From assembly GCA_002723345.1 (NCBI GenBank), contig PBNV01000031.1, positions 115,953-179,952 on the forward strand: a stretch of DNA of 64,000 nucleotides, in the 5' to 3' direction. The translations under genes were made by a program, and so were the position numbers. Each line of letters opens with the position of its first letter. Within the stretch, counting starts at the first letter, position 1. Below the pieces are notes generated by a model that was not told where the DNA came from, made no database searches, and saw only the letters and a program-made list of their open reading frames with translations. The stretch comes from Rhodospirillaceae bacterium (GTDB lineage Bacteria > Pseudomonadota > Alphaproteobacteria > Rhodospirillales > UBA2165). This document shows positions 12,011 to 62,078 of the stretch, one piece after another.

Positions 12011-12083
12011 TTTTTGCTGGGCTCGCACGAGGCCTAACACCCAAGGATCCAACTCACAGAAAAAACTAGCTCGTCGGTCGGGC

Positions 12084-13271: not shown

Positions 13272-13693
13272 ATAATTCTCCACGGAGACGGCGAGCGTGT
13301 ATAGACCTCCCCGCAAAGGAGCGCAAACGCCCATTTAAGTTTTATATCTTGGGTCGATGCAAGGGCATCATGGAAAGCGGTAGCGCGCTCAATCGAAACT
13401 TTATGCGACTGTCTTAATCTTTAGTTTAATCCTACCCTTCAAAATTATGAAAAGTTCAGGAGAGCTCTTAGAAAACGATCTTTTCATTATTGGCAGAAGA
13501 TATCGAGAATAAAAAGTGGTCGAAATAACCTGCGAGTAAGAGCAGAAAAATTACAAGTCTCAGCCACCTCTGGCCGAAAGCCAACGTAATTTTTTTGGGA
13601 GAGTAATCCAAAGCATTAAATCTTTACACAATTACTAATTGCATTTTACATTTGTGTATTTCGTAATTTGAACTCAACCTGTTAGGATCAGCA

Positions 13694-14665
13694 TTGGAAA
13701 ATAGCCAAGTAAAAGCCGAGCAAGGACTTTTGTTCGACTCTGTTGTCGCGCCTATGACTGTCACGGATTTTTTCAAAGAATATTTCCGGAATAAACCAGT
13801 CGTAATAAAGGGCGCAGATAATAAATTTTCTGATGTTATGAATTGGAAATTATTATCAGACATACTGAATCAGTCCGCTATTTGGTCGCCGCACTCTTTA
13901 AACCTGTATTCCAATACGAGAGCAATCTCTGCAGATCAATTCAGTTATCCATCACTTACGCGTGAGGGAAACGAGGGGCGGTTGATTAACTTCGATCAGG
14001 TCGCGGAACACGTAAAAAATGGCGCCTCTCTCGTTCTTAACGACATAGAAACACTTAACCCAGGGCTTAAATCAGTAGCTCACGCTATTGAGAGTACTTT
14101 CGTAGGTAAAGTGCAGGCAAACCTTTACTGTTCTCGGAGTGAAAACCAGGCGTTACCCGTCCATTTTGACACACACGACGTGTTCGCATTTCAAGTAGAG
14201 GGATCAAAACAGTGGCGCGTTTATGGCACATCAGTTCAAAAGCCAATCAATCATCATTTTTTTAAGTCAATAGATCAAAGTTTTCATGAGGCCAACAAAG
14301 GTGAGTTGTCCATAGACGAGGAATTAACTTCAGGCGATTTTATATACATTCCAAGAGGATTTTATCACGAAGCAATGTGCCATTCTGAGAGTACTGTGCA
14401 TGTTAGTTATAGTTGTGTGCCTATAATAGGGATTGATCTTTTAACGGCTTTTTTCGATGTGGCGGTAAAGGATGAGCTGTTCAGAGATGCTATTCCTAAT
14501 CCAGATGAGAAATCTGGTAAAAAGTTGGAGGAACACATTACTCGGTTAGTCGGACGAATGAGAAATAACGTGCTAAGTCCTGAATTTCAGGAACCGTTTA
14601 AGGAGGCCTTAAACAATTATAAGTTTGATAGGTTTAGCGTTAAGTTGCCCGATGATTTTGTTTAG
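13694..14665 (+). CDS. JmjC / cupin-4 family 2-oxoglutarate-Fe(II) oxygenase-like protein
   Basis: 323 aa with an HxD...H candidate metal triad in PVHFDTHDVFAFQVEGSKQWRVY and STVHVSY, plus FIYIPRGFYHEA. This resembles bacterial ribosomal-protein hydroxylases (YcfD/RoxA type). TTG start is uncertain (alternative ATG at 13754). The gene is AT-rich. Confidence 0.6.
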   Translation: MENSQVKAEQGLLFDSVVAPMTVTDFFKEYFRNKPVVIKGADNKFSDVMNWKLLSDILNQSAIWSPHSLNLYSNTRAISADQFSYPSLTREGNEGRLINFDQVAEHVKNGASLVLNDIETLNPGLKSVAHAIESTFVGKVQANLYCSRSENQALPVHFDTHDVFAFQVEGSKQWRVYGTSVQKPINHHFFKSIDQSFHEANKGELSIDEELTSGDFIYIPRGFYHEAMCHSESTVHVSYSCVPIIGIDLLTAFFDVAVKDELFRDAIPNPDEKSGKKLEEHITRLVGRMRNNVLSPEFQEPFKEALNNYKFDRFSVKLPDDFV

Positions 14666-14925
14666 TCGCCAATTTTATTAGGTGGTTTTTCTTATTTCAT
14701 TCTCGCGGGCGAGTAAGGAGTAACGACGCATAGTTATACTGCAACCACTCTATTTAGACCAGAAATTGTAGCTACACGCTCTCTCCTTCAGACAAATTTT
14801 GGTTCCCTGTGATTCAGAAATATTATCCTGATGGCTTTATCGCAAAACTTGTCTCATATAACCTACATCAAAGATCCAGGATTCTAACTGACTGCACGAT
14901 TTAAAATAGTTTGTGAGGATGTTTA

Positions 14926-15633
14926 ATGAATAAAATTTATGCCGATGCGCAAGCGGCACTCGAAGGACTGATGTACGATGGCATGACGGTTATGGCAGGT
15001 GGGTTTGGCCTTTGCGGAATTCCAGAACACCTGATCCTTGCTATGCGAGATTCTGGCATCGGTAACCTTACCGTTGTTTCGAACAACGCTGGTGTTGATG
15101 ATGCCGGACTTGGTCTACTTCTAAAGACTAGGCAAATTAAAAAAATGATCTCCTCTTATGTGGGCGAAAATAAAACCTTTGAACAGCAATACCTTGACGG
15201 CGAATTGGAGCTGGAGTTCAATCCGCAAGGTACCCTTGCAGAACGTATTCGTGCTGGCGGGGCCGGCATACCAGCGTTTTTCACAAAAACAGGTTTTGGC
15301 ACACAAATCGCTGATGGCAAGGAAACCCGGGCATTTGATGGAGAAAACTACGTGATGGAGACGGGTCTCGTTGCTGACGTTGCTATTGTGAAAGCAGATG
15401 TGGGTGACTCGGAGGGAAATTTGATTTTCCGAAAAACGGCGCGCAATTTTAACTCTATCATGGCCACCGCAGGGAAGGTGACAATCGCTGAAGTGGAGAA
15501 CCTGGTAGAACCGGGTGAGTTGGATAAGGACAAAATTCATACGCCAGGCATATTTGTGCAGCGCATTATCAAAGGCACGAGCTTTGAAAATCGCATCGAA
15601 CAATTGACGACCCGTGAACGGGATGTGGCATAA
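14926..15633 (+). CDS. scoA: 3-oxoacid CoA-transferase subunit A
   Basis: 235 aa with GGFGLCGIPE, VSNNAG, and ELEFNPQGTLAERIRAGGAGIPAFFT, which are canonical family I CoA-transferase A subunit motifs. Confidence 0.9.
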   Translation: MNKIYADAQAALEGLMYDGMTVMAGGFGLCGIPEHLILAMRDSGIGNLTVVSNNAGVDDAGLGLLLKTRQIKKMISSYVGENKTFEQQYLDGELELEFNPQGTLAERIRAGGAGIPAFFTKTGFGTQIADGKETRAFDGENYVMETGLVADVAIVKADVGDSEGNLIFRKTARNFNSIMATAGKVTIAEVENLVEPGELDKDKIHTPGIFVQRIIKGTSFENRIEQLTTRERDVA

Positions 15634-15645
15634 GGGAGAAGAGAC

Positions 15646-16296
15646 ATGGCTTGGTCACGCAATGACATGGCAGCCCGTGCTGCCAAGGAACTCCAGGATG
15701 GGTTTTATGTAAACCTCGGCATCGGTATTCCGACCTTGGTGTCGAACTATATTCCAGATGGCGTTTCCGTCTCCCTACAAAGTGAGAACGGGATGTTGGG
15801 CATCGGTCCCTTTCCCTATGCGGGGGATGAAGACCCGGACCTTATTAATGCCGGGAAGCAAACAGTAACAGAGCTGGATCAGACATCCTACTTCGACAGC
15901 GCCACGAGTTTCGGCATGATAAGAGGGGGACACGTCGATCTGGCAATATTGGGCGCCATGCAGGTAGCGGAAAATGGTGATCTCGCGAATTGGATGATAC
16001 CGGGTAAGCTCGTAAAGGGTATGGGCGGTGCCATGGACTTGGTCGCTGGCGTTAAACGTGTAGTTGTTATAATGGACCAGAACGCTAAAGATGGCAGCCC
16101 AAAATTTCTCAAAGAATGCAACTTGCCCCTTACCGGCACTCAGGTGGTAGATATGCTAATCACCGACCTCGGGGTCTATGAGATTGACCGAAAGTCGGGT
16201 CGGGCAACCCTGATCGAATTGGCGAAGGACGTGACCCTCGATGAAGTGCGGGAAAAGACGGAGGCTTCTTTTAATGTCACTCCCGGGCTGGCATAG
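15646..16296 (+). CDS. scoB: 3-oxoacid CoA-transferase subunit B
   Basis: 216 aa with [19 protein letters not shown] (catalytic Glu motif), and GMGGAMDLV. Confidence 0.9.
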
Positions 16297-32552: not shown

Positions 32553-32771
32553 ATGCAGATGATCAAAAAGGCGATCCCACTGTTAACCTTACTGCTGGTG
32601 ATGTTTTGGCCGAGCGCTTCACAGGCTTATTTAGATCCTGCGACAGGCAGTATGCTCATACAGTTGTTAGTCGGTGGAGCAGTAGCTATTGGTGTTACGT
32701 TGAAAATGTATTGGGAGAAAGTCAGGTTTTTCTGGCAAAAAAAAGTTTTGAAAAAAGATCGACCTGAATAG
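32553..32771 (+). CDS. Small membrane protein with a YLDPATGS motif
   Basis: 72 aa: signal-like N-terminus, AYLDPATGSMLIQLLVGGAVAIGV (a hydrophobic helix), and a basic tail. It is preferred over the overlapping 114-aa ORF at 32423..32767, which has no membrane or signal logic. Confidence 0.4.
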   Translation: MQMIKKAIPLLTLLLVMFWPSASQAYLDPATGSMLIQLLVGGAVAIGVTLKMYWEKVRFFWQKKVLKKDRPE

Positions 32772-32924
32772 CAAGTTCGGTCGAATAAAAGTGCCAATGC
32801 GCACGTCTGGTGTTTTTAGCGCAAGGCCTTTACTCCCGAGAAAACACTTAAATTTTCAAATGATATTTCTTTTCAGTAATTTTCCAGAATTATTTTACTC
32901 GGAATGGCAGATACATTTTAAAAC

Positions 32925-34442
32925 ATGCATAATTTAAGCGTCAAAAAAGGCTTTGCTCTAATATTACCTTGCTTGGTTTTCATTACGATGCAGGTTGTTT
33001 TTCAGTCTAGTCAGCTGCATTCAATACTAAATCTGGAGAGTTTAGCCCTCTTTTCTGTATTAGTCTTTGTTGGTGTTTGGGCAGGAGTCTTACTTGAATT
33101 TGAAAATCGCATGGTATCTTCAATTGTTATTGGGGCGCTATTTTCCATATTCCTAAATTTTATCGTATCCATAGAATACTCTGAGATTCGCATGCGCCAC
33201 AGTGTCCCCTTTTACTTTCTTATAGGTTTTTCCATTCATTGGTTTATGGGTGGGAAATTTCTAGTCATAATTTCTTCTGGTTTAATTGCAGTCTTATTAT
33301 CAACTTTATTGCTTCCATCAGAAAAGCCTTGGAAGGAGAACACGTTTAAGTTGGCGAAAACCGTACACCCCTCAAATTACCGCTCACCAATTCTTCACAT
33401 AATTTTAGATGGGCATCTTGGGTTGGCAGCATTTCCTCGTCAAATTGAGGGAGTTGAGCGATTAAACAAAAGAATTGGCGGTATCTATAAACAATATGGC
33501 TTTAAGGTTTATTCCCATGCTTTTAGCCGCCACAATTATACTCAAAACTCTATTCCAGAAATCCTAAATTTGAAGGAAATCAAAATTGATAAGAGTTATA
33601 TTAAAACGGACCCAAAACGCGGATTCGTACTAAAAAAGTCGGCCGTATTCGAGCAATACCGTAAGCACGGCTATGAATTGAACGTATTTCAGACCGATGT
33701 CATGGACTTTTGTTCGTTGGGATATTTTTCTTATTGCCTGACCGCGCCTTATAGAAACCTTGCATGGCTATCAAAGTCGGGCTTCGATTTTTCCACGAAA
33801 TTTTTCGTACTGGCATCAGCATTTCTAAACCAATCAAATTTGTTCCGTTGGTTTGAGAGGTATGTGCTGGCTAGGTGGAATATCGCTGCCCATCCGAAGA
33901 GTTTTCCGCCCGTCAACATGGTAGAGATGTTTAAACGAATTTCGAGGAGCACAGATTTGATTAAACCTGGGACCGTATCACTCGCCCATGTTCTGCTACC
34001 TCACGAGCCCTATGCTTTGGATGAATTATGCAACCTTCGTCCAATAAGTGAATGGTACCCTCAGAATTTAATTAAGGACCAGGAGTCTTACTTCGCTCAG
34101 ATGAATTGCACATACACGCTACTAGAGGAGTTGTTTGAATCGATCCGTAACAATCAAAGCGCAAAAGACGCTATCATAATTGTCCACGGCGATCATGGTT
34201 CCCGTATCGCACACAATGAAAAGTATGCAAAACTGTACACTTACTCCACGTTGTTTGCCGTTCGACACCCAAATTTACCCGCAAATGTTTTTAGCGATGA
34301 AGAGAGTATCACGACATTATTTTCCAAACATGTGTTGGAGTACCTTGGCCTAAACGACGGTAAAAAATTTAGAAACAACTCAATAATGAAAATTAAAGAG
34401 GCTGGCGGGGAGCTGGTCGAGGATGCAGCCCTAAAGTTTTAA
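32925..34442 (+). CDS. Membrane-anchored sulfatase/alkaline-phosphatase-superfamily transferase-hydrolase (LtaS/EptA-like architecture)
   Basis: 505 aa with about 5 N-terminal TM helices and then a soluble domain. That domain has ILHIILDGHLG (metal-ligand Asp region), a candidate nucleophile region HNYTQNSIPE, HVLLPHEPY, and IIVHGDHGSRI (the HGDHG metal motif). Confidence 0.6.
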   Translation: MHNLSVKKGFALILPCLVFITMQVVFQSSQLHSILNLESLALFSVLVFVGVWAGVLLEFENRMVSSIVIGALFSIFLNFIVSIEYSEIRMRHSVPFYFLIGFSIHWFMGGKFLVIISSGLIAVLLSTLLLPSEKPWKENTFKLAKTVHPSNYRSPILHIILDGHLGLAAFPRQIEGVERLNKRIGGIYKQYGFKVYSHAFSRHNYTQNSIPEILNLKEIKIDKSYIKTDPKRGFVLKKSAVFEQYRKHGYELNVFQTDVMDFCSLGYFSYCLTAPYRNLAWLSKSGFDFSTKFFVLASAFLNQSNLFRWFERYVLARWNIAAHPKSFPPVNMVEMFKRISRSTDLIKPGTVSLAHVLLPHEPYALDELCNLRPISEWYPQNLIKDQESYFAQMNCTYTLLEELFESIRNNQSAKDAIIIVHGDHGSRIAHNEKYAKLYTYSTLFAVRHPNLPANVFSDEESITTLFSKHVLEYLGLNDGKKFRNNSIMKIKEAGGELVEDAALKF

Positions 34443-34479
34443 AGGAAGGACCCGTTTTTGATGCTGGCTCAAACCCGAT

Positions 34480-36030
34480 TTAAAGTACACGCCTTCGGAT
34501 TTGCGAAGAAACCATGTCAATTATGAAGATGGTAACAAAAATCATAATAATTATTGCAGATACTCGAGGGTAGTTAAACATTCTAAACGATGATTGAAGT
34601 TCGTATCCTATGCCACCAGCTCCGACTATACCAAGCATGGTGGCCATTCTCACGTTTCGGTCAAGGATATACAAATTGTTGCCAACAAAAGATGGAAGCA
34701 CTTGAGGGATTATAGAAAAAGCGAGAACCTGGAGGCGCGAGGCATTCATCGAGGTAAGTGCTTCTGACGGGCCTGGATCTATATGTTCGATGGCCTCGGC
34801 ATAAAATTTAGCAAGAAATCCCATCGTGTGAAGACCGAGAGCTAGAACTCCAGGGATTGCGCCAAAACCCACAGCAATGACCAAGATCATTGCCATTACA
34901 AATTCGGGAACGGCTCTAAAAAACACGGTTATAACCCGACACATCACATAAATACTATAATTTGGAGAAATATTGGAAGCTGATAAGAACCCGAGAGGAA
35001 TTGATAGGGTAATGGCCATTAATGTCCCTAAAAAAGCCATCTCAACTGTTTCTAGCATCAACCCAAGTAATTGATTCATATTGGAAAAATCTGGTGGCAT
35101 CATTCTTTGAATGACATCGGAAAAATAGGTAAAAGTATTATGAAACAGCTCTAATGGGTCGATCTCTAAATCTATAATTGCTAAAATTGTAAATAGAATT
35201 AGACCTGAAATGCTCAAATATGTGGGCCAATTCCATTGCGGTAGGATGTAAGACTCCAAAAGCTTGCGGTTGCCTTCCTCTATGTCGATATATTTGTCTA
35301 ATTTTCCACCATAACCACTTATTTCTGCACTTTCATGAGCGACTAGGACTAATTCTTTGATCGTATTTTTAGTTTTCTCCGGCAATACTGATGAGAAGAC
35401 CAATGGAGCGCCTGGAATAGGCTTAGACTCATGAAGGATACGTATCCTTTGGGCGTACTCTGGGTTACGAGCAATATTCTCTTGCAGATTCACTGAGCTT
35501 ACGGCTGCAACATCAGCACGACCCTCCAATAATATTCGGATAGCCTCATCATGATTATTTGCTTCTATAATTTCAGAAAAATGCAACCTGTTATCTAGAT
35601 TTACCCCGACATCTTTTAGTTCTCTTTTAGGGACGAGGTATCCACTCATAGATTGCGGATTACCTATAACTATTCTCGTCCCCTTAATGTTTTTTAGATC
35701 CTCAACATTTGACTCTTTGAGAGAAATAAAAAGGCTATTGTATGTTGGGGTTGATTGTCCCTTCAGCAACCCGACTGCAAAAGGCTGTATAATCCCTTTT
35801 TCGTTAGCCTCAAGATACGCGTAAGGGCCTAGCCATCCCATTTGCGCTTCCCCGTTTGTCAGTTTAGAGAGCGCCTCTTCATAACTTTCGCAGCGCTGGA
35901 TATGGAAGGAAAAAGATGTTTTCTCTGTCAGAAATTCAAAGAGATTATCAAAATCGAGGCCGGAGGCTTTTCGGCTCGCGGGTGCGATGGCCACTTGAAT
36001 TGTTGTTTCAGGTTCCACCATTTCCATCAA
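34480..36030 (-). CDS. Fusion protein: PhnD-like phosphonate-binding domain plus PhnE-like ABC permease
   Basis: 516 aa. Residues about 1-260 are PhnD-like (GWLGPYAYLEA, SMSGYLVP, ADVAAVSS). The rest is PhnE-like (ETVEMAFLGT, RAVPEFVMAMILV, LDRNVRMATMLGIVGAGGIG). The N-terminus has no signal peptide. The start is TTG 36030 or ATG 36027. Confidence 0.75.
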   Translation of the reverse strand: MMEMVEPETTIQVAIAPASRKASGLDFDNLFEFLTEKTSFSFHIQRCESYEEALSKLTNGEAQMGWLGPYAYLEANEKGIIQPFAVGLLKGQSTPTYNSLFISLKESNVEDLKNIKGTRIVIGNPQSMSGYLVPKRELKDVGVNLDNRLHFSEIIEANNHDEAIRILLEGRADVAAVSSVNLQENIARNPEYAQRIRILHESKPIPGAPLVFSSVLPEKTKNTIKELVLVAHESAEISGYGGKLDKYIDIEEGNRKLLESYILPQWNWPTYLSISGLILFTILAIIDLEIDPLELFHNTFTYFSDVIQRMMPPDFSNMNQLLGLMLETVEMAFLGTLMAITLSIPLGFLSASNISPNYSIYVMCRVITVFFRAVPEFVMAMILVIAVGFGAIPGVLALGLHTMGFLAKFYAEAIEHIDPGPSEALTSMNASRLQVLAFSIIPQVLPSFVGNNLYILDRNVRMATMLGIVGAGGIGYELQSSFRMFNYPRVSAIIIMIFVTIFIIDMVSSQIRRRVL

Positions 36031-36050
36031 TTTTCATCCGGGTAACAAAA

Positions 36051-36848
36051 TTAGGATACAAAAGGAACGTCAATACTTGAGATATATTCGTTATTATGGG
36101 CCCCAAAAAACACGTCCTGTCTCTCACTGCCATAGATATTATGGAGGTATTTTAGGTCTAAAGACGCGCTAGGTGCATCAAAAACTATCTTTCCGTTAGT
36201 CAAACCTATAATTCGATCAGCAAATTTCAGCGCCAAGTCTACTTGATGAAGATTACACAAAACGGTAATCCCCTGTGCCGAGCTAATTCGTTTGAGCATT
36301 GATAGCACCTGAAATGCAATTAAGGGATCAAGACTGGCTACCGGTTCATCTGCCAAAACAATTAGAGGCGAGCGAGCTATAGCCCTGGCAATGCCAACTC
36401 TTTGCTGTTGGCCACCAGAGAGTTGATCCGCTCGAACGTGAGCTTTTGAGAGCAGGCCCACTTGATCAATACATTCGAGTGCTCGCAATTTCTGAGATTT
36501 ATCGAATAAATAAAAAAGCGAACCAACTGGGTGGCACTTATCCAACATCCCTGACAGCACATTATTTATCGTCGACAGATTCTTGACCAAGTTAAAATCT
36601 TGAAAAATCATACTAATGTGTTGCCGAGCTACAAACGGATCATCAAAATTTATGTGGTTTTTATTTAAAATAATTGAGCCGCTGGTCGGTTTATTTAATC
36701 CATTTATACTTCTTAATAATGTTGTTTTTCCGGACCCACTAGGTCACAAAATAACAACAAATTCTCCCTTTTTTACCTCAAAATTCACCTCTTTTAATGC
36801 TTTGGTCCCGTCATTAAATGTATGCTGAAGGTTTTGTACGTTTAGCAT
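36051..36848 (-). pseudogene. phnC: Phosphonate-type ABC ATPase PhnC, interrupted by an in-frame TGA at the first Walker-A Gly codon
   Basis: From the ATG at 36848 the frame reads [53 protein letters not shown]...ISMIFQDFNL...[14 protein letters not shown]...[10 protein letters not shown]. The stop codon at 36744..36746 occupies the G of GPSGSGKT. The track reports only the downstream 186 aa. Confidence 0.8.
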
Positions 36849-36906
36849 ATTTTCATGTTTATTAATCAGCGGGTAAAAATAAAAATAAAAAACTTGGCAT
36901 CATGAT

Positions 36907-37755
36907 TTATTTTCTAGCGTCGAGCAAACCCTCCACCTCTCGCAGTAGGTCATAGTCGGAGTCGGTAACAGGGATATAACGTGCCATTTCTCCGCCGTAG
37001 CCCCCAATTTTACCGTGTTTATGAGCCTCCAAAACGGCCGCCCTTATTTTTTTTCTGACTGGCTCCGGGAGCTTAGTCGAGTAGGCTAGTGGGGGAGGTG
37101 GAACGGGGGATGACACATGAATTATGCGGAAATCATCTTTTTTAAACGTTTGATCCTTGAGGCGCGCATCAAAATTTCTAGAACTGACCCCACACACATC
37201 AGCGTGTTTATTTCGGATCGACATCATGCACGCGTCGTGGCTTCCAGCGTAAAAAACGCGTTTAAAGTCCTGGGCTGTTGAAAGACCAAATTTTTGCAGT
37301 TCTACCCGGGGGATTAAATCCCCGCTGGTTGAACCTATACTATTCAGCGCCAGTAATTTGCCTTTTAAGTCGGGCAGTGTTTTGTAGGCGCTGTCCGTAC
37401 GAACAACAAAATAAGTGTTATAAGTCGCATCGGTATCACCTTTACGAACGCCTGCCGCAAAAGCCTCTGCATTTGCTATTTTTGCTGCCATTATGTAGGT
37501 CTTACCACCAAACCAGGCTATTTGCGCCCTGTCTGCCCGCATCGACTCAACGGCCGCATTATAGTCCGTAACTCGAATTGGCGTTATTTCATATCCCGTT
37601 AGCTTGTTTACAATCTCTATTAAATTTACGTAGTCTTTTTCATCGCCCTTCTCGCTGGCTGGAACGAACACCATGTTGATTTTTACTGGTTTTGCTATCA
37701 GGGGAACAGTCCATGCGATCAGCAAAATAACAAAAAGAGGGAGCAATTTATTCAT
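36907..37755 (-). CDS. phnD: PhnD-family periplasmic phosphonate/phosphite-binding protein
   Basis: 282 aa with a signal peptide MNKLLPLFVILLIAWTVPLIA, then MVFVPA, IAWFGGKTYIMA, and STSGDLIPR, typical of the PhnD family. Confidence 0.8.
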   Translation of the reverse strand: MNKLLPLFVILLIAWTVPLIAKPVKINMVFVPASEKGDEKDYVNLIEIVNKLTGYEITPIRVTDYNAAVESMRADRAQIAWFGGKTYIMAAKIANAEAFAAGVRKGDTDATYNTYFVVRTDSAYKTLPDLKGKLLALNSIGSTSGDLIPRVELQKFGLSTAQDFKRVFYAGSHDACMMSIRNKHADVCGVSSRNFDARLKDQTFKKDDFRIIHVSSPVPPPPLAYSTKLPEPVRKKIRAAVLEAHKHGKIGGYGGEMARYIPVTDSDYDLLREVEGLLDARK

Positions 37756-37781
37756 TAATTCACCTACTGGTTACCTTTTTA

Positions 37782-38903
37782 TCAGCTAGCAAACTCGACG
37801 AGTGCTTTTTTATAGTCTTCAACCGTATCTATCTCTCTCCAGCCACGTTCAATGATAACGCTGTGAACGGATACTCCGAGATCCACCATTTCTTGGATTA
37901 AGTCAGTGAGGTAGGCTTTTTGGAATGTTTTGGCCCGTTGGAAGGGCTTGTCCCAATAAAGTGCTTTTGACCTCTGAAAATGACGCTTAAAAATTTCCGC
38001 CCCTCGTGGCGTCAATTTAATCATACCAATAAATTCACCATGAACATCATCCTTGTTGGTCATAATTTTACCGATTTTTATGACCTCATTATTGGCGTCC
38101 AATACCACATTTTCCGCCTCATCAATTGGATGTTCTTTCCTGCCGACATACATTCCGCGCCAATCGATATCTACTACAATCGAAATGTCGTGCTTGGACT
38201 CAAGTAATCTACGAACAATAAAGCTCTCGAATAGTATGTCAGAGTAAGATATAACAACATTATTGTTTATTTCCTTTTCTGCATAAAATAGTGAATTTAA
38301 GATATTGTTATTCTCATATTCATCATTATCAAAATATTTGATATCTGGATAATCTATACACTCTTTTTTGTACCCTCTAATCAGCGAAATATCAGATATG
38401 CCTGTTTCTTGGTATGCCTCAAGCTGGCGTTGCAGCAGGGTCTTGTCTCCAAATTCTAAAAGACATTTTGGACGCACATCGGTATATGACCCCATCCTGC
38501 TACCGAGACCGGCTGCAATAATGATCGCTTTTGTATTCTTGGCCATAAGCAACTCCCGCATTTCTCTGATCTGTAACTCGCTGGCGCGTTGGTCTTGGAT
38601 CTCCCTCAATAGGTGCACTGTTTCGGGACTTTTCTGGATCATCTCTGATACATCTGCCGCGATATCATTTCTAGACTGCCCTGCTAAATCGAAAGCTAAT
38701 TTTTTATCCGCATTCAACAGATTGGCGATCTCCATCACGGTTGCCGCTTTTGGGGCGTCACGTTTCTGTTTCTCGATGTCGTTAAGGTACGAAGGGGAAA
38801 TGCCTAATTGACGCGCAAATTCCCTGAGCCCTAGACCCGCATCTAATCTAAGATCTCGAATGTACTGTCCAAAAGTATCGCTTGGGTCACCCATGAGAGC
38901 CAC
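37782..38903 (-). CDS. XRE-type HTH domain fused to a LicC/PntC-like nucleotidyl(cytidylyl)transferase
   Basis: 373 aa. The N-terminus FGQYIRDLRLDAGLGLREFARQLGISPSYLNDIEKQKR is a Cro/C1 HTH. From about residue 122 it reads KAIIIAAGLGSRMG...RPKCLL...ISYSDILF...WREIDTVEDYKKA, a GT-A NTP-transferase fold of the phosphocholine or 2-AEP cytidylyltransferase type. Confidence 0.75.
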   Translation of the reverse strand: MALMGDPSDTFGQYIRDLRLDAGLGLREFARQLGISPSYLNDIEKQKRDAPKAATVMEIANLLNADKKLAFDLAGQSRNDIAADVSEMIQKSPETVHLLREIQDQRASELQIREMRELLMAKNTKAIIIAAGLGSRMGSYTDVRPKCLLEFGDKTLLQRQLEAYQETGISDISLIRGYKKECIDYPDIKYFDNDEYENNNILNSLFYAEKEINNNVVISYSDILFESFIVRRLLESKHDISIVVDIDWRGMYVGRKEHPIDEAENVVLDANNEVIKIGKIMTNKDDVHGEFIGMIKLTPRGAEIFKRHFQRSKALYWDKPFQRAKTFQKAYLTDLIQEMVDLGVSVHSVIIERGWREIDTVEDYKKALVEFAS

Positions 38904-38955
38904 ATTTGTTCAACTGTTCGCAAACAGGTAAACAATCTAGGTCCGATGGTCAATA

Positions 38956-40110
38956 TTATTTTTTTACTATGTCATAAATCAACTCGGAGCCCCTTTTGGC
39001 ACTTTGGCCGATATTAAATACAGTTTTGTCCCGCAAAGCTCGAATTTGTGTGACAAATTTCTCTGAGTCTTCCATAATTTCTGTCACGACATCTGTCACG
39101 TTGTCTAACTTCTCTTTCCCAAGAATTATGCCAATCTTATCACGCGCACTAATTTCAATGGGAATATTTTCTAACTCCGTGTAACGTGGATTATTTATTT
39201 TTTTGGGAACGTCAATGAATATGACGGGCCGCTCTAAGCCGAAGGCAAACTCTAAACTGACGCCCGACCAGTCACTTATTAATACATCGGCTTTGATCAA
39301 ACTCTCAAAAATAGCGTTATCCATATCCATTTCAAAATTTGGATGACTATTAAAGTTCGCAGCTAAGAGTTTCACATTTTTGGCAGATTTGATCCTGCTT
39401 TGCGGGTGAAGCCGCAACGTCACATAATGTCCCGCATCCAGTAGCGACCCAACTAATTCTTTTGCACCATTTTCAATCAAGCCCTCTGACCCCCATGATG
39501 GGGCAACTAATACGTTATAATTCGAGGTTGCTGGTTTTGAAATAAGGGGCTGCGAAGATACCATATCCAGAATGGTGTCTAATGGTGCGTATCCATGTTC
39601 ATACAAATTTTTTTCTGGGAGATTATTCAATTTCTCCCATTCGCGAATTTCCGATACATGGTGGGATCCGGAGCACAAAATTGTGTCAAAGTGATCAAAA
39701 GCCCCTGGCTTGTAAACCATGTGAGAACTCACAAGAGAGTGTTGCAAATAGATATAGTGGACCGGGTAACGCGATCGTTTAATATGAAAGGAGTGAAGGT
39801 CAGGCATTGTCATCACTAAGACCTTGGCCTTTAAGGTTTGAAAGGCAAATATCATTGCGCTTCCCCAACCTACATATACTGATTTTACATTCTCTGGTGG
39901 TTCCGAGAGCAACGGGTCATCTTGATCAGAGGTTAAATAACAAATTCTTAAATTATGATCCTCTGTTAAATGGGACATTACTGGCAAAAGAAAACCGTGG
40001 TATGCCCCCCCCTCCGAGTAAAATACCAAGTTTTTATCTTCCAAAGGTAGCGACCGCAGTTCAATGCACCCACGCCAAGATGCAATAAACGATTGGAAAT
40101 ATTTAAGCAC
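38956..40110 (-). CDS. TagF-like CDP-alcohol (glycero/ribitol)phosphotransferase family protein
   Basis: YNVLVAPSWGSEG matches the family APTWR-type motif. ADVLISDWSGVSLEFAFGLERPVIFIDVP matches the LITDYSS...F motif. The start is uncertain: the track start at 40203 overlaps the tRNA, so I suggest the GTG at 40110 (MLKYFQSF...). Confidence 0.7.
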   Translation of the reverse strand: MLKYFQSFIASWRGCIELRSLPLEDKNLVFYSEGGAYHGFLLPVMSHLTEDHNLRICYLTSDQDDPLLSEPPENVKSVYVGWGSAMIFAFQTLKAKVLVMTMPDLHSFHIKRSRYPVHYIYLQHSLVSSHMVYKPGAFDHFDTILCSGSHHVSEIREWEKLNNLPEKNLYEHGYAPLDTILDMVSSQPLISKPATSNYNVLVAPSWGSEGLIENGAKELVGSLLDAGHYVTLRLHPQSRIKSAKNVKLLAANFNSHPNFEMDMDNAIFESLIKADVLISDWSGVSLEFAFGLERPVIFIDVPKKINNPRYTELENIPIEISARDKIGIILGKEKLDNVTDVVTEIMEDSEKFVTQIRALRDKTVFNIGQSAKRGSELIYDIVKK

Positions 40111-40164
40111 TTTCAAACCAGGCAAAACAATACAGTTTTGTTTAGAGACTTCGGCCCATAAGAA

Positions 40165-40240
40165 TGGTGCCGCCTGGGTGACTTGAACACCCGACCCTCG
40201 CATTACGAATGCGATGCTCTACCAACTGAGCTAAGGCGGC
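40165..40240 (-). tRNA. tRNA-Thr (anticodon CGU), with encoded CCA
   Basis: The minus strand reads GCCGCCTTAGCTCAGTTGGTAGAGCATCGCATTCGTAATGCGAGGGTCGGGTGTTCAAGTCACCCAGGCGGCACCA. It folds into a perfect cloverleaf: 7-bp acceptor, GCTC/GAGC D stem, TCGCA/TGCGA anticodon stem with loop TTCGTAA, and GGGTG/CACCC T stem with a TTCAAGT loop. Confidence 0.95.
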
Positions 40241-40291
40241 AAGGTACTCAGCATGCTTTTTTATACCGGTGCGACCAGAATTACCAGGGTT

Positions 40292-41758
40292 TCATTGGTC
40301 CGTCATCCCGCGGACTCTCTGACTTAAGCTAGCGCGGGCTGCGGATATCACGCCTGCCCAATCTCCCGGCGATGTTTGCCTGAATAGCCGAGCTGACGGG
40401 TACCACGGCGTAGTTTTGCCGTGGTACCACCGCCAATCAGGGTCATGATGCAGCAGCACCCAGACGGGTTTTCCAAGCGCGCCTGCCAGATGCGCGACGG
40501 CTGTGTCAGAGGTGATGACCAGATCCAGGGCGTTGATCATTCCGGCCGTATCTTCTAACGATGCCGGGCCGGTGTCGATAATGGGGAAGTCTACTGGCAA
40601 CGGTGGGGCCGGTGTTTGGCCTTTCTGCAAGCTAAACCAAATGACCTTGTTATTTTCGGCTAGCGTCATCAATTGGTCCACTGGGAGCCGCCGCCGTTTC
40701 TCTACTGGATTATTCGAATTGCCACTCCAGTTCAGGCCAATCTTCAAGCCGTCATACTGGCTTAGTTTTTTTTGCCAGGTTACATAATGATTCACAGGAA
40801 CACGTATGTATGGCGTTGCGCGGAACAAGTCAGGACCGCGCAATTGACACAGCCGTGGTACATCCATCAAGGGGGCATGGACGTCAAAATTTGAGCTCGT
40901 CTCTGCTGGCCGCTGGATTTCATCGGCGAGATGGCTCTCCTCGGCAATGGGGATCAGTGTCTCGGGTAGTTCCAAAATAACACGGCCGCCGGTGGCTTTG
41001 AGAGCAGACACAAACCGCAGCATAAACAGCATGTCGCCGAGCCCTTGCTCGGGATATACCAATATGGTCCGCCCGTTAAGATTATTTCCGGTCCATTCCG
41101 GTTGGTCAAAGGATGACCGCCGACCGGGAAATTTGGGCCAGCGCCAGCGCCAGTTCATCTCGCGAAAGCCGTCTTCATAGCGTCCCGCGCTCAATAGAGC
41201 GAGCGAGAGGTTCCAATGAGCAAGCGCAAAATCCGGGTCAAGGTCGATGGCTTTTTGGTAACTGGCAAGGCTGTCGTCAACCAGGCCAACGTCTTTTTCG
41301 GCATTGCCAAGATTATTAAGCGTTTCTGGATCCGACCCAGCAATAGCAGCGGCCCGCCGGGCGTAATCAAGGCCCGAAACGATGTCTCCGGCATTACGAC
41401 ATGCGCTGGCTAAATTACTGAGCGCCCTCGAGTGCTCCGGATTAAGCCTTATCGCAGAGCGAAAGCTCCGTTCTGCAGCTTCCTCCTGACCTTGCTCACG
41501 CAATGCTATGCCCAGATTGTTATGATAATCGGCGACATCATTTTTGATGGATAAAGCCATACTAATTAGCCGAACGGCAAGACGGTTATCGCCTTTCTGC
41601 ATCGCTGCGACACCCAGAAGGTGCCATAAGTCCGGATGATCTGGGTGCTCGTCTAGCAGGTTGTGGTACAGGCCGATTGCCTGATCAAGGTCGCCAGATA
41701 CTTGCAGTTGAATCGCGTTCTGCAAAGTTGCAGTGAAGGCTTGGCTAGGGTCTGCCAT
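40292..41758 (-). CDS. TPR-repeat protein fused to a glycosyltransferase family 9 (heptosyltransferase-like) domain
   Basis: 488 aa. The N-terminal half has repeated TPR units (e.g. AIRLNPEHSRALSNLA, AIDLDPDFALAHWNLS). The C-terminal half has LVITSDTAVAHLAGALGKPVWVLL, typical of GT9. Confidence 0.7.
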   Translation of the reverse strand: MADPSQAFTATLQNAIQLQVSGDLDQAIGLYHNLLDEHPDHPDLWHLLGVAAMQKGDNRLAVRLISMALSIKNDVADYHNNLGIALREQGQEEAAERSFRSAIRLNPEHSRALSNLASACRNAGDIVSGLDYARRAAAIAGSDPETLNNLGNAEKDVGLVDDSLASYQKAIDLDPDFALAHWNLSLALLSAGRYEDGFREMNWRWRWPKFPGRRSSFDQPEWTGNNLNGRTILVYPEQGLGDMLFMLRFVSALKATGGRVILELPETLIPIAEESHLADEIQRPAETSSNFDVHAPLMDVPRLCQLRGPDLFRATPYIRVPVNHYVTWQKKLSQYDGLKIGLNWSGNSNNPVEKRRRLPVDQLMTLAENNKVIWFSLQKGQTPAPPLPVDFPIIDTGPASLEDTAGMINALDLVITSDTAVAHLAGALGKPVWVLLHHDPDWRWYHGKTTPWYPSARLFRQTSPGDWAGVISAARASLSQRVRGMTDQ

Positions 41759-55298: not shown

Positions 55299-56933
55299 TT
55301 GCTCTCGCAAGCTCTAATGATGGGAAGCCCGAAAGGCTTTTTGAGTGGGTTGCAGCGGTTTACCTTTGCGAGCCCCATCTACAATTATACCTTGCTGGGA
55401 CGGGTGCCCGACCGTCTGCTAGGTACGCCGCCAGAACTTCTGCCAGGCAATGCCTCGGCAGGGCAAGCGATCCTGTCTGGGGCCCTTACTTTCAAGGGCC
55501 GTCGTTATCCATTGCCAAACTTTGAGGTGCTCCCTAAGGAATTGTCTGAAGAGTTGTGTGAGTATACTCACGGATTCTCTTGGCTTGCGGACTTGAGGAT
55601 CGTGGGTGGGCCAAGAGCCCGTCATCGAGCCCAGGCTTTGATTGCCGATTGGCTGTCTCGGTATGATGATTGGGATTTATTTGTTTGGCGCCCAGATATT
55701 ACCGGGGCCAGGCTGGCAAACTGGATCACGCATTTTGCTTTTTATGTTTCAGACGTGGATGTCAGGTTTCGAGAGGAATTGTTTGTATCTCTCGCGCGCC
55801 AGTCGCGACATTTAAGCCGGGCAGCGCATATGGCGAACCCAGGGTTAGAGGCCGTGCTAGCCCTACAAGGACTTATTTATGCGGGGATCGCTGTTCCCGA
55901 GTCTGATAACTATCTGGCTCAAGGCCTTGAGCTTTTGGAGGCCGAGGCGAGAAATCAGATCTTACCCGATGGTGGCCATGTGTCCAGGAATCCGAGTAAT
56001 CAATTGCGAATGTTGAGAGCTTTTTTGGAAATTCGGGATGCCCTTATGGCGGCACATATTGATCTCCCAAATTGGCTTAAAAATGTGATCGAACGGATGG
56101 TTCCCATGACCCGCGCCTTGCGGATGGGAGATGGTGCGCTTGTGTGTTTTCACGGCGGAGGCGCCGGAGAGAGCGCCGAAATTGATTTGATTCTGGCTAA
56201 GTCGAACATCAGGGGCAAGCCGGCGCTAATCGCCCCGCACACGCAATTCCATCGATTATCAGCCGGCAAAACCACCCTCGTGCTAGATGCCGGCGCACCT
56301 CCGACCGTGCAAACTAATCGGTGGGCGCACGCTGGCACGCTTGCCTTTGAGATGAGCGCGGGAAAGGAGCGTCTGATCGTTAACTGCGGTTCAACCCGCC
56401 AAATGGGTCTTAAATGGCAACAAGCCTTGCGCACGACAGCGGCCCATTCGACGGTGGTTGTGGATGATACCAATTCCTCCGAGCTGGGAAAAAACGGCGG
56501 TCTCGGTAAGAGAGGCCATACCGTTCAATGCAGCCGGCGCGAGATTGATGGTCGGTCTGTGCTAGAGGTTTCCAGCGACGGGTATAAGGGGCTTTTCGAC
56601 CTGCAACATCGCCGGTTTCTGATGATGTCTTCGGATGGTACAGAGCTGTTGGGCGAGGATCTTCTGATTGGAACCGGGGGCAAGCGCTTTACTATTCGGT
56701 TTCATCTTCATCCCAATGTGCAGGCGACACTTATACAAAACGGGAACGCGGTTCTCTTGAAACCGCGCCGTGGACGCGGGTGGAAATTGGTGTCGCCCGA
56801 CACGGAGGTTCTTCTGGAGGAGAGCATATATATTGAAAACGCCGACCACCCTCGCCGAACGCAACAAATTGTAATTCCCGGCGAGATATTGGGTCGGGGC
56901 GCTGCAGTAAAATGGCGTTTGGAACAGATTTAG
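55299..56933 (+). CDS. Heparinase II/III-family protein
   Basis: 544 aa. The central region (LPDGGHVSRNP, HAGTLAFEMSAGKERLIVNCG) matches my recollection of the heparinase II/III-like family that commonly follows rsmB in Alphaproteobacteria. TTG start. Confidence 0.7.
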   Translation: MLSQALMMGSPKGFLSGLQRFTFASPIYNYTLLGRVPDRLLGTPPELLPGNASAGQAILSGALTFKGRRYPLPNFEVLPKELSEELCEYTHGFSWLADLRIVGGPRARHRAQALIADWLSRYDDWDLFVWRPDITGARLANWITHFAFYVSDVDVRFREELFVSLARQSRHLSRAAHMANPGLEAVLALQGLIYAGIAVPESDNYLAQGLELLEAEARNQILPDGGHVSRNPSNQLRMLRAFLEIRDALMAAHIDLPNWLKNVIERMVPMTRALRMGDGALVCFHGGGAGESAEIDLILAKSNIRGKPALIAPHTQFHRLSAGKTTLVLDAGAPPTVQTNRWAHAGTLAFEMSAGKERLIVNCGSTRQMGLKWQQALRTTAAHSTVVVDDTNSSELGKNGGLGKRGHTVQCSRREIDGRSVLEVSSDGYKGLFDLQHRRFLMMSSDGTELLGEDLLIGTGGKRFTIRFHLHPNVQATLIQNGNAVLLKPRRGRGWKLVSPDTEVLLEESIYIENADHPRRTQQIVIPGEILGRGAAVKWRLEQI

Positions 56934-57032
56934 CGGACTTTATGGCTTGCAAGAAAGAGAACACAAATTAGGGTGCGGGCAACTTTGGAGTCGGTAGACA
57001 TTGTCTGCTGTCAGAAGGAAACGAACAAATCC

Positions 57033-58367
57033 ATGTCTCACCAAGACCTTCTCAAGCGTATTACAGATAATACAGCTATCATCGGTGTGATCGGCATGGG
57101 GTATGTTGGTTTGCCTCTTGCTATTACTTTTGCAGACAAAGGGTTTTCCGTCGTCGGCCTTGATGTTGATCCAGATAAGGTCAAGAGTTTGAATGCTGGA
57201 ATTTCTTACATCAGACATGTCCCTGGCGAGAGCATTTCTCGTCATGTGGAAGGCGACCGTATTAATGCGACCATCGATTTTACTGCGCTGGCCGATGTTG
57301 ATGCTATTCTTATCTGTGTACCGACCCCTCTTAACGGGAACAGGGAGCCAGATTTAAGTTATGTTGAGTCGACGGCTCAGATGATTGTTCCTCATTTGAG
57401 AGAGGGCCACTTAATCGTGCTCGAGTCGACTACATATCCAGGCTGCACGGATAGTTTATTAAAGCCTATTCTTGAACAAGGTGGGATGAAGTCAGGCGAG
57501 GACTTTTACCTTGCTTATTCGCCAGAGAGGGAAGATCCAGGAAATCCTGAATTTGCAACGTCGCGCATTCCAAAAGTGGTCGGAGGCGATGGTGCTCAGG
57601 CTCTTGAAACAGCAACTGCACTTTACGATCAAATTGTTGTTGGGACTGTTCCCGTGTCATCCATGGACGTTGCCGAGGCTGTAAAACTCACAGAAAATAT
57701 TTTCCGTTCAGTGAACATTGCGCTCGTAAACGAACTCAAGGCGATCTATGAAAAAATAGGCATTAATATCTGGGAAGTTATTGAGGCGGCAAAAACAAAG
57801 CCATTTGGGTACATGCCATTTTATCCCGGACCAGGACTGGGCGGGCACTGTATCCCCATTGACCCCTTCTATCTCTCGTGGCGTGCTAAGCAGGCCGGTG
57901 AGTCAACACGGTTCATCGAGCTCGCTGGTGAAATAAATACTGCAATGCCAGAAAAGGTAATAAATACACTTGAGCAGGCCCTTCAGGACCAATTCAATCA
58001 ACCATTAAAAGGTGCAAGTATTTTACTAATAGGACTGGCGTATAAGAAAAATGTCGATGACACACGCGAAAGTCCTGCGTTTTCATTAATCGAGATTATG
58101 GAAACTCGCGGTGCGAATGTCCAATATTATGATCCCCATATCCCTGAGATTCCTATTACACGTGAATACGCGCATTTGGCGGGGCGTCGCTCACTTGATT
58201 TGGACGGTAAAAATAATGCTGACTTCGATGCATTGCTCATTTGTACAGATCACGATGCCATAGATTTTGTAAAAATTACGGAGGGTCAAAAGTTGATCAT
58301 AGATACCCGCGATGCAATTTCCCGATCGGAGGTTACATTGAATGAGAACCAAGTAGTTAGAGCGTAG
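57033..58367 (+). CDS. Nucleotide-sugar dehydrogenase (UDP-GlcNAc/ManNAc 6-dehydrogenase type)
   Basis: GVIGMGYVGLPLA Rossmann fold, the catalytic region GPGLGGHCIPIDP, and LGLAYKKNVDDTRESPA. The start is moved to the ATG at 57033. Confidence 0.85.
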   Translation: MSHQDLLKRITDNTAIIGVIGMGYVGLPLAITFADKGFSVVGLDVDPDKVKSLNAGISYIRHVPGESISRHVEGDRINATIDFTALADVDAILICVPTPLNGNREPDLSYVESTAQMIVPHLREGHLIVLESTTYPGCTDSLLKPILEQGGMKSGEDFYLAYSPEREDPGNPEFATSRIPKVVGGDGAQALETATALYDQIVVGTVPVSSMDVAEAVKLTENIFRSVNIALVNELKAIYEKIGINIWEVIEAAKTKPFGYMPFYPGPGLGGHCIPIDPFYLSWRAKQAGESTRFIELAGEINTAMPEKVINTLEQALQDQFNQPLKGASILLIGLAYKKNVDDTRESPAFSLIEIMETRGANVQYYDPHIPEIPITREYAHLAGRRSLDLDGKNNADFDALLICTDHDAIDFVKITEGQKLIIDTRDAISRSEVTLNENQVVRA

Positions 58368-58877
58368 CCCTCATTCAGGGTGTATTAGCCGAGAATTTCA
58401 TTATTACATCCGGATGCAGTATCTCATTCCCTTGACTTTCATATTTTTGTTTAGGCACATGCTTTATTGATGATAGTTGGATAACAAATACTGTTGTAAT
58501 TGTTCGTCTATCAATAGGTTTACGAAAAGAATAAGTATGCAGTTCTGTCCCAACCAAAAAAACAGGGATGCGGAGTTCAAAAAAAATTGAAGCAATTTAT
58601 TTTTGCCAAATTTCGGTGTACTGGGCCAAAATATTGAAACAACCCGGAAAACTGCATACAAAGGATGACTTGGTTGAAGACGATTGTAGTTTGTTACTCT
58701 AAAAACGTCTGTTCTCAAATGTTTGCAGTATTGCAAGCTAACCTAATACAGTATTTTTCTTTTGCCTTGAGTTCTCCGCAGCGTTGAATAATTTATGTTC
58801 AATCAACTAACGTCATCCTCGCTCACACAATGTTGCGCATTTTTTTCATTATCCCTTAAATGCTTGGCTCTCGTTGA

Positions 58878-60149: not shown

Positions 60150-60311
60150 AAATATCGCTTTTCTATCGGCTCAGGTCCCAAAAATTCTGAGCCAGAGCGA
60201 TCCGTCAATAAGAAGTTTTTGTGCAGGCGCTGATGTACAAAAGAACTTGACGTTCATGTCGTGAACCAGTTACTGTTCGGACGATGAACGCTATGTTTAC
60301 ACACCCTCAAT

Positions 60312-61489: not shown

Positions 61490-61545
61490 TTTAGCTATTG
61501 GCGCTATTTTGGTTTTTAGTGTCCTGGGGGCGGAGCCACCTGGAC

Positions 61546-61557: not shown

Positions 61558-61583
61558 GAAAATAACATGACGGAAAATACTAC

Positions 61584-62027: not shown

Positions 62028-62078
62028 TAAGCTCTCAATCCGCTAAACCTAGATCGAAAAAAAACAGGACAGACTGCC

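Follow-up and report, generated by a model that had tools for sequence, protein, structure and literature searches.

Seven genes on a low-GC island of a Rhodospirillaceae genome (contig PBNV01000031.1), lying at ~32.5–40.16 kb of the 64-kb stretch analysed here and hereafter called the window, on balance probably form a salvage-type module for phosphonyl tailoring, in which a scavenged phosphonate would be imported, activated with cytidine monophosphate (CMP), and transferred. The genes encode a secreted binding protein (PhnD), an ATPase (PhnC), a PhnD-PhnE permease fusion, a nucleotidyltransferase fused to a helix-turn-helix domain (HTH-NTase), a TagF-like phosphotransferase, a membrane enzyme of the sulfatase/alkaline-phosphatase (AP) superfamily, and a 72-aa membrane protein. 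Import, CMP-activation, and transfer had been suggested in the original prediction from the window sequence. This reading is now supported by the co-conservation of the genes, the family to which the NTase belongs, the binding pocket of PhnD, and the interchange of methylphosphonate synthase (MpnS) with PhnD-PhnC-PhnE (PhnDCE) in related genomes.

Co-conservation and the link to phosphonate biosynthesis

Homologues of the HTH-NTase number more than 2800, most of them above 60% identity. A one-genome-per-species scan with a 22-sequence NTase alignment returned 80 loci, and 83 non-redundant loci, the window included, were counted after the window proteins had been mapped onto them and all open reading frames (ORFs) clustered. 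PhnD, PhnC, and PhnE directly follow the NTase in 53 of these 83 loci, among them loci from dozens of Pelagibacteraceae (SAR11) single-cell genomes, Rhodospirillales, Thalassospiraceae, two Planctomycetia, and one gammaproteobacterium. The TagF-like gene is present in 22 of the 83 by clustering and in two more by tblastn, either immediately upstream of the NTase or just after phnE; it adjoins the NTase in L007, L019, L021, L023, L031, L038, L040, L043, L057, L060, L062, L068, L074, L081, and L085. The closest relative, a Rhodospirillales metagenome-assembled genome (MAG; L007/L087), matches the window gene for gene in the series TagF-like, NTase, PhnD, PhnC, PhnD-PhnE. With 53 of the 83 loci sharing the four-gene core and L007/L087 the full order, the arrangement is far beyond chance. 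The seven genes are a recurrent set rather than a chance neighbourhood. The combination that the original prediction had read from a single stretch is co-conserved in dozens of genomes.

The same NTase is also found among genes for phosphonate biosynthesis. In the SAR11 single-cell genome AG-909-C05 (L017), the TagF-like gene and the HTH-NTase share one co-directional biosynthetic cluster with genes for a PhyH-family dioxygenase, phosphoenolpyruvate mutase (Ppm), phosphonopyruvate decarboxylase, an iron alcohol dehydrogenase, and a 435-aa protein. The mutase, which is fused to a PF01467 cytidylyltransferase domain, scores 368 bits against TIGR02320 (cutoff 319.55), and the 435-aa protein matches MpnS (6b9s, 1.7e-108) better than HepD (2.5e-63). 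In this protein the equivalents of Gln152, Phe162, and Ile184 of the Nitrosopumilus enzyme are conserved; Born et al. (2017) are reported to have found that these residues separate MpnS from HepD. NTase orthologues 57–74% identical to that of the window lie within genuine Ppm-Ppd-Pdh-MpnS clusters. The SAR11 cluster shares orthologues of both the NTase and the TagF-like gene with the island, and differs in that the window has PhnDCE at the place of MpnS or of the whole cassette.

Three arrangements in related loci bear on this difference. The L017 NTase is 91–93% identical to the NTases of L083, L024, and L041, which lie at the same chromosomal site (ValS-IlvD-ManC/small multidrug-resistance (SMR) gene) and carry PhnD-PhnC-PhnE instead of MpnS. 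In L079 and L039 the order is Ppm-Ppd-Pdh-NTase-PhnDCE, with the importer exactly at the place that MpnS has in L017. Finally, L005 encodes the NTase, an MpnS-family protein (6b9s, 1.2e-75), and Pdh, followed by a 75-codon phnE remnant that is 81% identical to the window gene. This remnant corresponds to the 3' end of the gene (13868–14098) directly after the MpnS-Pdh pair, and it looks like the scar of an exchange between importer and biosynthetic cassette. In a neighbour-joining tree, NTases from biosynthetic and importer contexts are intermixed. Judging by L017/L083/L024/L041, L079/L039, and L005, importer and final step of biosynthesis (or the cassette in its entirety) are alternative modules behind one activating enzyme. 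The activating and transfer enzymes are those that phosphonate producers use.

Within the window itself, tblastn with the L017 and L005 proteins found no homologue of Ppm, Ppd, Pdh, MpnS, or PhyH, and a Pfam sweep of 40 further large ORFs found no family of phosphonate biosynthesis and none of the C-P lyase, PhnW/X/A, PhnY/Z, or PtxD families. The original observation that the window lacks genes for phosphonate biosynthesis and catabolism is therefore borne out across all 64 kb. The 40 ORFs encode housekeeping proteins, transporters, and a polysaccharide locus at 55–63.5 kb.

Importer and proposed activating enzyme

The secreted PhnD matches PF12974 (1.3e-54) and the TIGR01098 subfamily (175.7 bits, cutoff 112), and stays below the TIGR03431 PhnD equivalog (196.7 bits, cutoff 261.1). 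Its nearest solved structures, 5lv1 (4e-29), 5o2j, and 5jvb, are those of the phosphite binders PtxB and a Trichodesmium homologue. We examined its pocket in an alignment of 54 orthologues, using determinants taken from PMC12718374. All 54 sequences have the phosphorus-head ligands Y65, Y112, S142-T143-S144, and H173; 53 have R193, and 52 have P221. Pro221 occupies the position of Tyr208, the aromatic cap that restricts PtxB to phosphite, and Arg193 and Pro221 occupy the positions of Glu177 and Asp205, the acidic pair with which Escherichia coli PhnD binds the amine of 2-aminoethylphosphonate (2-AEP) (PMC12718374). These replacements indicate a binder that is probably neither of the phosphite type nor of the 2-AEP type. 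The original prediction had allowed that the pocket might resemble that of phosphite binders; the head ligands are indeed kept, and the tyrosine cap is missing. Phosphite import was discarded as the main explanation, given the absence of the cap in 54 of 54 orthologues.

The PhnT family also includes GpxB, a glycerol-phosphate binder (PMC12718374). Similarity of the secreted PhnD to GpxB is weak (9lf9, 2.7e-9); Arg193 aligns with GpxB Arg223, and the position of GpxB Thr247 is Pro. Our best guess for the ligand is methylphosphonate or 2-hydroxyethylphosphonate (2-HEP). The interchange of MpnS with PhnDCE suggests methylphosphonate, and the conserved Arg193 suggests a hydroxylated tail such as that of 2-HEP.

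The permease protein consists of a PhnD-like domain (residues ~10–260) and a PhnE permease (~265–516), the latter scoring 287.9 bits against the TIGR01097 equivalog (cutoff 216.7, residues 271–515). This fusion is found in all of the best 120 of 1810 homologues; most SAR11 loci encode an unfused PhnE of 275 aa. The fused PhnD domain starts at the first strand of the mature fold and has no signal peptide, and residues 1–250 of the fusion contain no hydrophobic segment. From residue 322 on, the permease part can be aligned with the complete five-helix core of MetI; before this core lies one extra helix (272–290), after which the loop is acidic. Since the N-terminus of MetI is periplasmic, the extra helix and the acidic loop that follows it would, by topology rules, place the fused PhnD domain in the cytoplasm. 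This domain keeps the head ligands and has Ile/Val and Ala at the tail positions, compared with Arg/Pro in the secreted PhnD. A binding-protein domain on the cytoplasmic side of an ATP-binding cassette (ABC) importer would be unusual.

The importer belongs to the same family (TC 3.A.1.9) as the C-P lyase-linked PhnCDE and the PtxABC importers, with which it shares a PhnE above the equivalog cutoff and the phosphorus-head ligands. It differs from them in its Arg193/Pro221 pocket, in the second, probably cytoplasmic, PhnD domain on the permease, and in its surroundings, where C-P lyase, PhnWX, PhnYZ, and PtxD are lacking.

In the window sequence phnC is interrupted by TGA at 36744–36746 (minus strand), at the first Gly codon of the Walker A motif (GPSGSGKT), so that PhnC as read here is not intact; the fragment downstream of the stop still matches TIGR02315 at 1.3e-61. 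An exact-sequence look-up of the PhnD protein led to four other public contigs, three of which cover the phnC codon. All three (L090, L091, L092; 99.96–99.98% identical) read GGA, a single G-to-T change away from TGA, and contain a complete phnC of 265 codons. Over 12,755 aligned bases, one of the four contigs (67.6 kb) shows 2 differences from the window, the phnC TGA being one of the two. Because the three sibling assemblies read GGA, the transporter is intact in the population, and the TGA is either a substitution private to this one sequence or an error in it. The relic transporter that the original prediction had considered on account of the stop was thereby discarded. Recoding of TGA as glycine (code 25) was likewise ruled out, as in-frame TGA is absent from all other island genes and the siblings read GGA.

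The HTH-NTase is 373 aa long (370 aa from ATG). Residues G132-x-G134-S135-R136-x8-P145-K146, D222, and E357-I-D359 are invariant in 22 homologues, so the protein carries the signature GXG(T/S)RX4-8PK, the consensus defined for LicC/PntC (PMC6697681), together with the metal-binding acids. Its NTase domain has LicC (1jyk, 1.9e-16) as its best solved relative, followed by 1tzf and PntC (6pd1) at 1e-6, and none of the TarI, IspD, and sugar-1-phosphate families reaches threshold (IspD Pfam 0.009, under cutoff). The original assignment as LicC/PntC-like stands, with LicC as the nearest solved relative and orthologues inside Ppm-Ppd-Pdh-MpnS clusters. The acids that bind the amine in LicC (D105) and PntC (E104) are apparently Ser or Tyr in the window enzyme, a placement that comes from pairwise alignment alone and is weak. 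The NTase shares family and consensus motif with PntC of the Pnt clusters (Rice et al. 2019, PMC6697681). As defined there, PntC lies near ppm and is active on AEP; the window NTase has no ppm nearby, and its orthologues in L017, L079, and L039 adjoin ppm.

Of the 53 PhnDCE-linked NTases, 47 carry an XRE-type HTH, and orthologues without one exist as well, one of them (L078) with PhnDCE. The invariance of the catalytic motifs and the existence of the HTH-less orthologues argue for a working enzyme rather than a sensor, and we propose that it is a CTP:phosphonate cytidylyltransferase. It is probably an autoregulator as well. NadR combines an HTH with NMN adenylyltransferase and works with the PnuC importer; it is likewise a DNA-binding domain fused to an NTase for an imported substrate, and it is not homologous to the island NTase. 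A palindrome search for an HTH operator in the TagF-NTase intergenic regions of the window (38904–38955) and L007 (1620–1675) revealed a shared block, TGTTTAC(C/A)(T/C)GTTTGC(G/T)AACA, with a weak TGTT-N4-AACA palindrome that lies downstream of a TTGAC(C/T) hexamer. This block may be the operator for the HTH domain. Separately, B12-binding radical SAM enzymes (488–521 aa) recur upstream of the NTase in L002/L004/L005; Fom3, which methylates CMP-hydroxyethylphosphonate, is an enzyme of this B12-binding radical SAM type.

Putative transfer machinery and setting of the island

The TagF-like protein exceeds the PF04464 gathering cutoff (27.8 bits, cutoff 22.1). Its AlphaFold model (pLDDT 91) has TagF as the best solved fold (3l7k, E 3.9e-13, TM-score 0.56), with a TagF-like capsule polymerase (8qoy, rank 3) and GT-B epimerases among further matches. 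Such fold searches were needed for this protein and the AP-fold enzyme, as sequence searches against Protein Data Bank (PDB) chains gave nothing usable for either. No NCBIfam model matches these two proteins or the 72-aa protein, and the last matches no Pfam family either. Among 1972 homologues of the TagF-like protein, 27 were aligned, in which H124, H130, H150, and H235 are invariant; in TagF the catalytic histidines are H444 and H584. The TTG start near 40110 (~384 aa) is more plausible than that of the longest ORF. This longest ORF (38956–40203, minus strand, 415 aa), used by public gene calls, overlaps the tRNA gene, and an ORF at 40183–40332 (plus strand) reading YECDALPTELRR is a familiar spurious translation of the same tRNA gene.

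The island protein has the GT-B fold and PF04464 in common with TagF/TarF and TagF-like capsule polymerases. It differs from TagF in that sequence similarity is marginal, it is only ~380 aa long without the polymerase-type extra domains, and its partners imply small CMP/CDP-linked phosphorus groups: phosphonates here and a phosphoramidate in L089. We propose that it moves a phosphonyl group from CMP-phosphonate to a hydroxyl acceptor with release of CMP; genomic context argues for CMP-phosphonate, not CDP-glycerol, as the donor.

Two clusters of more distant homologues widen this picture. L088 (8001–13716) encodes a distant TagF-like homologue, PhnD, PhnC, PhnE, a 141-aa PF01467 cytidylyltransferase, and a 333-aa protein. 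The cytidylyltransferase (TagD/Fom1-type) is non-homologous to the window NTase, and the PhnD has Phe at the Arg193 position. A cytidylyltransferase domain of the PF01467 family, that of Fom1, makes CMP-hydroxyethylphosphonate (PMC6697681), and L088 appears to be an independent case of an import-activate-transfer triad. L089 (1377–12464; a Pseudomonas MAG) encodes a sulfatase, a PRK05849-type kinase, a GATase resembling gamma-glutamyl-CDP-amidate hydrolase, an NTP_transf_3 enzyme, a TagF-like homologue, a 75-aa AYLDPGTGS protein, and a 524-aa YidC-like protein. Its gene set resembles the O-methyl phosphoramidate (MeOPN) pathway of Campylobacter (Cj1416-Cj1418), and it appears to be a phosphoramidate (MeOPN-like) cluster with the same transferase pair. 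The window differs from the Campylobacter pathway in having no kinase or amidohydrolase gene and a transporter as its source module. On the strength of L088 and L089, the TagF-like family and its small partner appear to serve quite generally in the transfer of small cytidine-activated phosphorus groups.

The sulfatase-fold protein scores 32.2 bits against PF00884 (cutoff 25; 9e-8), and its family comprises 1522 representatives. Its model (pLDDT 90) shows five N-terminal transmembrane (TM) helices (6–29, 37–58, 62–80, 90–108, 110–129) followed by an extracytoplasmic alpha/beta domain of the alkaline-phosphatase fold, and the putative D/H metal-ligand motifs H158, D162, H355, H360, and D423-H424 are invariant in 30 homologues. 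The original label, sulfatase/LtaS/EptA, holds for the architecture; the nearest fold is instead PbgA/YejM (6v8q/6xlp), ahead of sulfatases, LtaS (4uoo), and phosphonate monoester hydrolase (4uph). TagF-like genes have divergent homologues of this protein as neighbours in L037, L085, L081, and L030, and tblastn gave a weaker trace in L068 and L043.

The 72-aa protein has a signal-like N-terminus, the motif AYLDP(A/G)TGS, one TM helix, and a basic tail. Its homologues adjoin TagF-like genes in L012, L030, L037, L043, L050, L068, L074, L081, and L085, and also in L089. An AYLDPGTGS protein accompanies a TagF-like gene in nine or more loci from different lineages. A membrane protein of 500–580 aa is usually there too, and in L037, L085, L081, and L030 its relationship to the sulfatase-fold protein of the window is detectable. 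We propose that the AP-fold enzyme and this small partner are part of the transfer apparatus at the membrane's outer face.

The coordinates of the island genes are collected in Table 1. The five minus-strand genes are co-directional and separated by 52, 26, 58, and 20 nt, exactly as first described, and Pfam and NCBIfam confirmed every domain that had been named for the island proteins. Two features are new relative to that description, the adjacent tRNA-Thr(CGT) gene and the single low-GC block of 7.7 kb, which as a whole has 41–42% GC (flanks 50–55%) and along its length 36–45%, compared with 50–58% on both flanks. At the 3' end of the tRNA gene, the GC fraction rises from 0.43–0.45 to 0.55–0.59. 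Neither a direct repeat of the tRNA 3' end nor an integrase was found in the window; in L002/L004, an integrase-like gene comes after a related module. Scans for promoters and terminators turned up no more candidates than shuffled sequence did.

Table 1. Island genes and the adjoining tRNA gene, in window coordinates
Feature	Position	Strand	Assignment and remarks
tRNA-Thr (anticodon CGT)	40165–40240	-	ARAGORN; abuts the TagF-like gene, marks the right-hand island edge
TagF-like GT-B phosphotransferase	38956–~40110	-	Glyphos_transf PF04464; fold
XRE-type HTH + LicC/PntC-like nucleotidyltransferase	37782–38903	-	HTH_3/HTH_31 + NTP_transf_3
Secreted PhnD, 282 aa, signal peptide	36907–37755	-	PF12974, TIGR01098
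PhnC ATPase, 265 codons	36051–36848	-	TIGR02315; TGA in Walker A
PhnD-PhnE fusion	34480–36030	-	PF12974 + BPD_transp_1; TIGR01097
Sulfatase/alkaline-phosphatase-superfamily membrane enzyme, 505 aa, convergent to the minus-strand genes	32925–34442	+	PF00884
AYLDPATGS membrane protein, 72 aa, just upstream of the sulfatase-fold gene	32553–32771	+	Sequence motif

Elsewhere in the window, a surface-polysaccharide locus (55299–63500, plus strand; low-GC, 41–45%, at 58–62 kb) encodes heparinase II/III-like, UDP-glucose dehydrogenase, and Wzy_C O-antigen-ligase-like proteins, an HTH_24 protein, a NusG-like protein, and a CBS-epimerase. This locus may be the source of the acceptor glycan. A second dip in GC content (12000–16000, 45–47%) holds genes for a major facilitator superfamily (MFS) transporter, a JmjC/cupin protein, and a CoA-transferase pair.

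Readings of the module and their implications

As we picture the salvage module, secreted PhnD would take a small alkylphosphonate in the periplasm, most plausibly one of the two named above, and PhnC and PhnE would import it. The LicC/PntC-like domain would join the phosphonate with cytidine triphosphate (CTP) to give CMP-phosphonate, and the XRE-type HTH probably controls the operon too, as in NadR or BirA. The TagF-like GT-B enzyme would then place the phosphonyl group on a hydroxyl of a glycan or lipid-linked precursor, releasing CMP. The 5-TM AP-fold enzyme and the AYLDPGTGS protein would act at the outer face of the membrane, where they may pass the group to the final acceptor or free phosphonate from esters.

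Several points weigh against this scheme. No TagF-like gene is seen in the sequenced stretch of 35 of the 53 PhnDCE-linked loci, of which many are on short contigs; the usual neighbour is ManC, a glycan gene. The HTH domain permits a purely regulatory view of the HTH-NTase, and the Fom1-like cytidylyltransferase domain fused to Ppm in L017 blurs the division of labour between two NTases. Genes for Ppm or C-P lyase could lie elsewhere in the genome, outside the 64-kb window. Finally, Arg193 lies at the position of GpxB Arg223, which binds glycerol hydroxyls; a tail that is hydroxylated or anionic would suit it better than methyl, which makes the choice of ligand uncertain.

The regulatory view can be extended to the whole island, with PhnDCE importing phosphonate or phosphite for regulated phosphorus nutrition, the HTH-NTase serving as a transcription factor with an NTase-like ligand sensor, and the TagF-like and sulfatase-fold genes being unrelated neighbours. 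We regard this as unlikely, if the least improbable of the alternatives. It would account for the prevalence of the HTH among PhnDCE-linked NTases, for the many SAR11 loci that show the four genes alone, and for phosphite binders being the nearest solved relatives of PhnD. It fits poorly with an NTase whose GxGSRx8PK, D222, and EID motifs are invariant, which occurs without the HTH even beside PhnDCE and lies inside biosynthetic clusters, and with the recurrence of the TagF-like, small TM, and AP-fold proteins beside the NTase in unrelated lineages. Moreover, no gene for C-P cleavage or phosphite dehydrogenase adjoins the module, and the phosphite cap is missing from PhnD.

Two further explanations keep the enzymes and change the cargo or its origin. 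Recycling by producers, in place of piracy, would have the AP-fold enzyme trim phosphonate esters from the cell's own or neighbouring glycans, PhnDCE retrieve the acid, and the NTase re-activate it. L079 and L039, which carry Ppm-Ppd-Pdh together with PhnDCE, are compatible with such self-recapture, as are the resemblance of the AP-fold protein to, among others, phosphonate monoester hydrolase and the fact that the rest of the genome lies outside the window. We judge it improbable, a little more so than the nutritional explanation, because at the majority of PhnDCE-linked loci no biosynthetic gene lies within 10 kb, nor is there one anywhere in the 64-kb window, and the AP-fold protein travels with the TagF-like protein even where PhnDCE is absent (L085, L068, L081). 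Least probable in our estimation is a phosphoester cargo, for instance glycerol-1/3-phosphate, taken up through a GpxB-like PhnD, converted to a CDP-alcohol, and then attached or polymerised by the TagF-like enzyme, with the LtaS-like enzyme completing a teichoic-acid-like decoration. The presence of GpxB in the PhnT family (PMC12718374), Arg193 at its Arg223 position, the fold match to TagF, a CDP-glycerol enzyme, and the pairing of PhnDCE with a TagD-type enzyme in L088 all speak for this cargo. However, PhnD is far closer to PtxB/marine PhnD (4e-29) than to GpxB (2.7e-9) and has Pro at Thr247, the NTase is LicC-like rather than TagD- or TarI-like, and NTases 91–93% identical to one another alternate between MpnS and PhnDCE neighbours. 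PF01467 domains also work on phosphonates, as the Fom1 domain does in making CMP-HEP (PMC6697681), and a dedicated importer for glycerol-3-phosphate, which cells make themselves, is hard to justify.

The phosphonate-salvage reading has its closest parallel in the Lic pathway of Streptococcus pneumoniae and Haemophilus (LicB choline permease, LicA kinase, LicC cytidylyltransferase, LicD transferase), which follows the same logic of import, CTP-activation, and transfer to surface glycans. The island differs from it in having an ABC importer, PhnDCE, in place of LicB, a TagF-like GT-B transferase in place of LicD, no kinase (a phosphonate would need none), an HTH on the NTase, and an extra AP-fold enzyme with a small TM partner. 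Pfam and NCBIfam searches found none of the LicA, LicB, and LicD families in the island, so that the LicC-like step alone is shared with Lic. Both the Lic logic and the cytidylyl activation of phosphonates by PntC and Fom1 are already known. Full-text literature searches, together with the main papers on marine phosphonates and PntC, yielded no description of a bacterial module coupling a PhnCDE importer to a cytidylyltransferase; the nearest item is a diatom that takes exogenous 2-AEP into its lipids (PMC9765203).

Phosphonates account for roughly a fifth to a quarter of the high-molecular-weight dissolved organic phosphorus in the sea, and their producers may spend up to 40% of cellular phosphorus on them, apparently on surface glycoproteins (PMC8931226). 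It is possible, although we would put it somewhat short of an even chance, that abundant ocean bacteria, many SAR11 and marine Rhodospirillales among them, take up free methylphosphonate or 2-HEP and attach it with the C-P bond intact to their own surface glycans, with the cytidylyltransferase and TagF-like transferase of phosphonate producers and with the fused PhnD as a cytoplasmic sensor or hand-off domain. Such a domain would be an arrangement not described for ABC importers. In that case the marine phosphonate cycle would contain an unrecognised sink and re-use loop, and the presence of phnCDE in genomes without a C-P cleavage pathway would be explained. The module offers a compact candidate gene set (TagF-like protein, AYLDPGTGS protein, AP-fold enzyme) for the transfer steps of phosphonyl tailoring, and it is widespread in very abundant marine bacteria. 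If the salvage reading is correct, more organisms would bear surface phosphonates than pepM counts suggest, and some phnD/phnCDE genes now counted as markers of phosphorus acquisition would serve another purpose. Methylphosphonate, the precursor of aerobic marine methane, would gain an uptake route without methane release.

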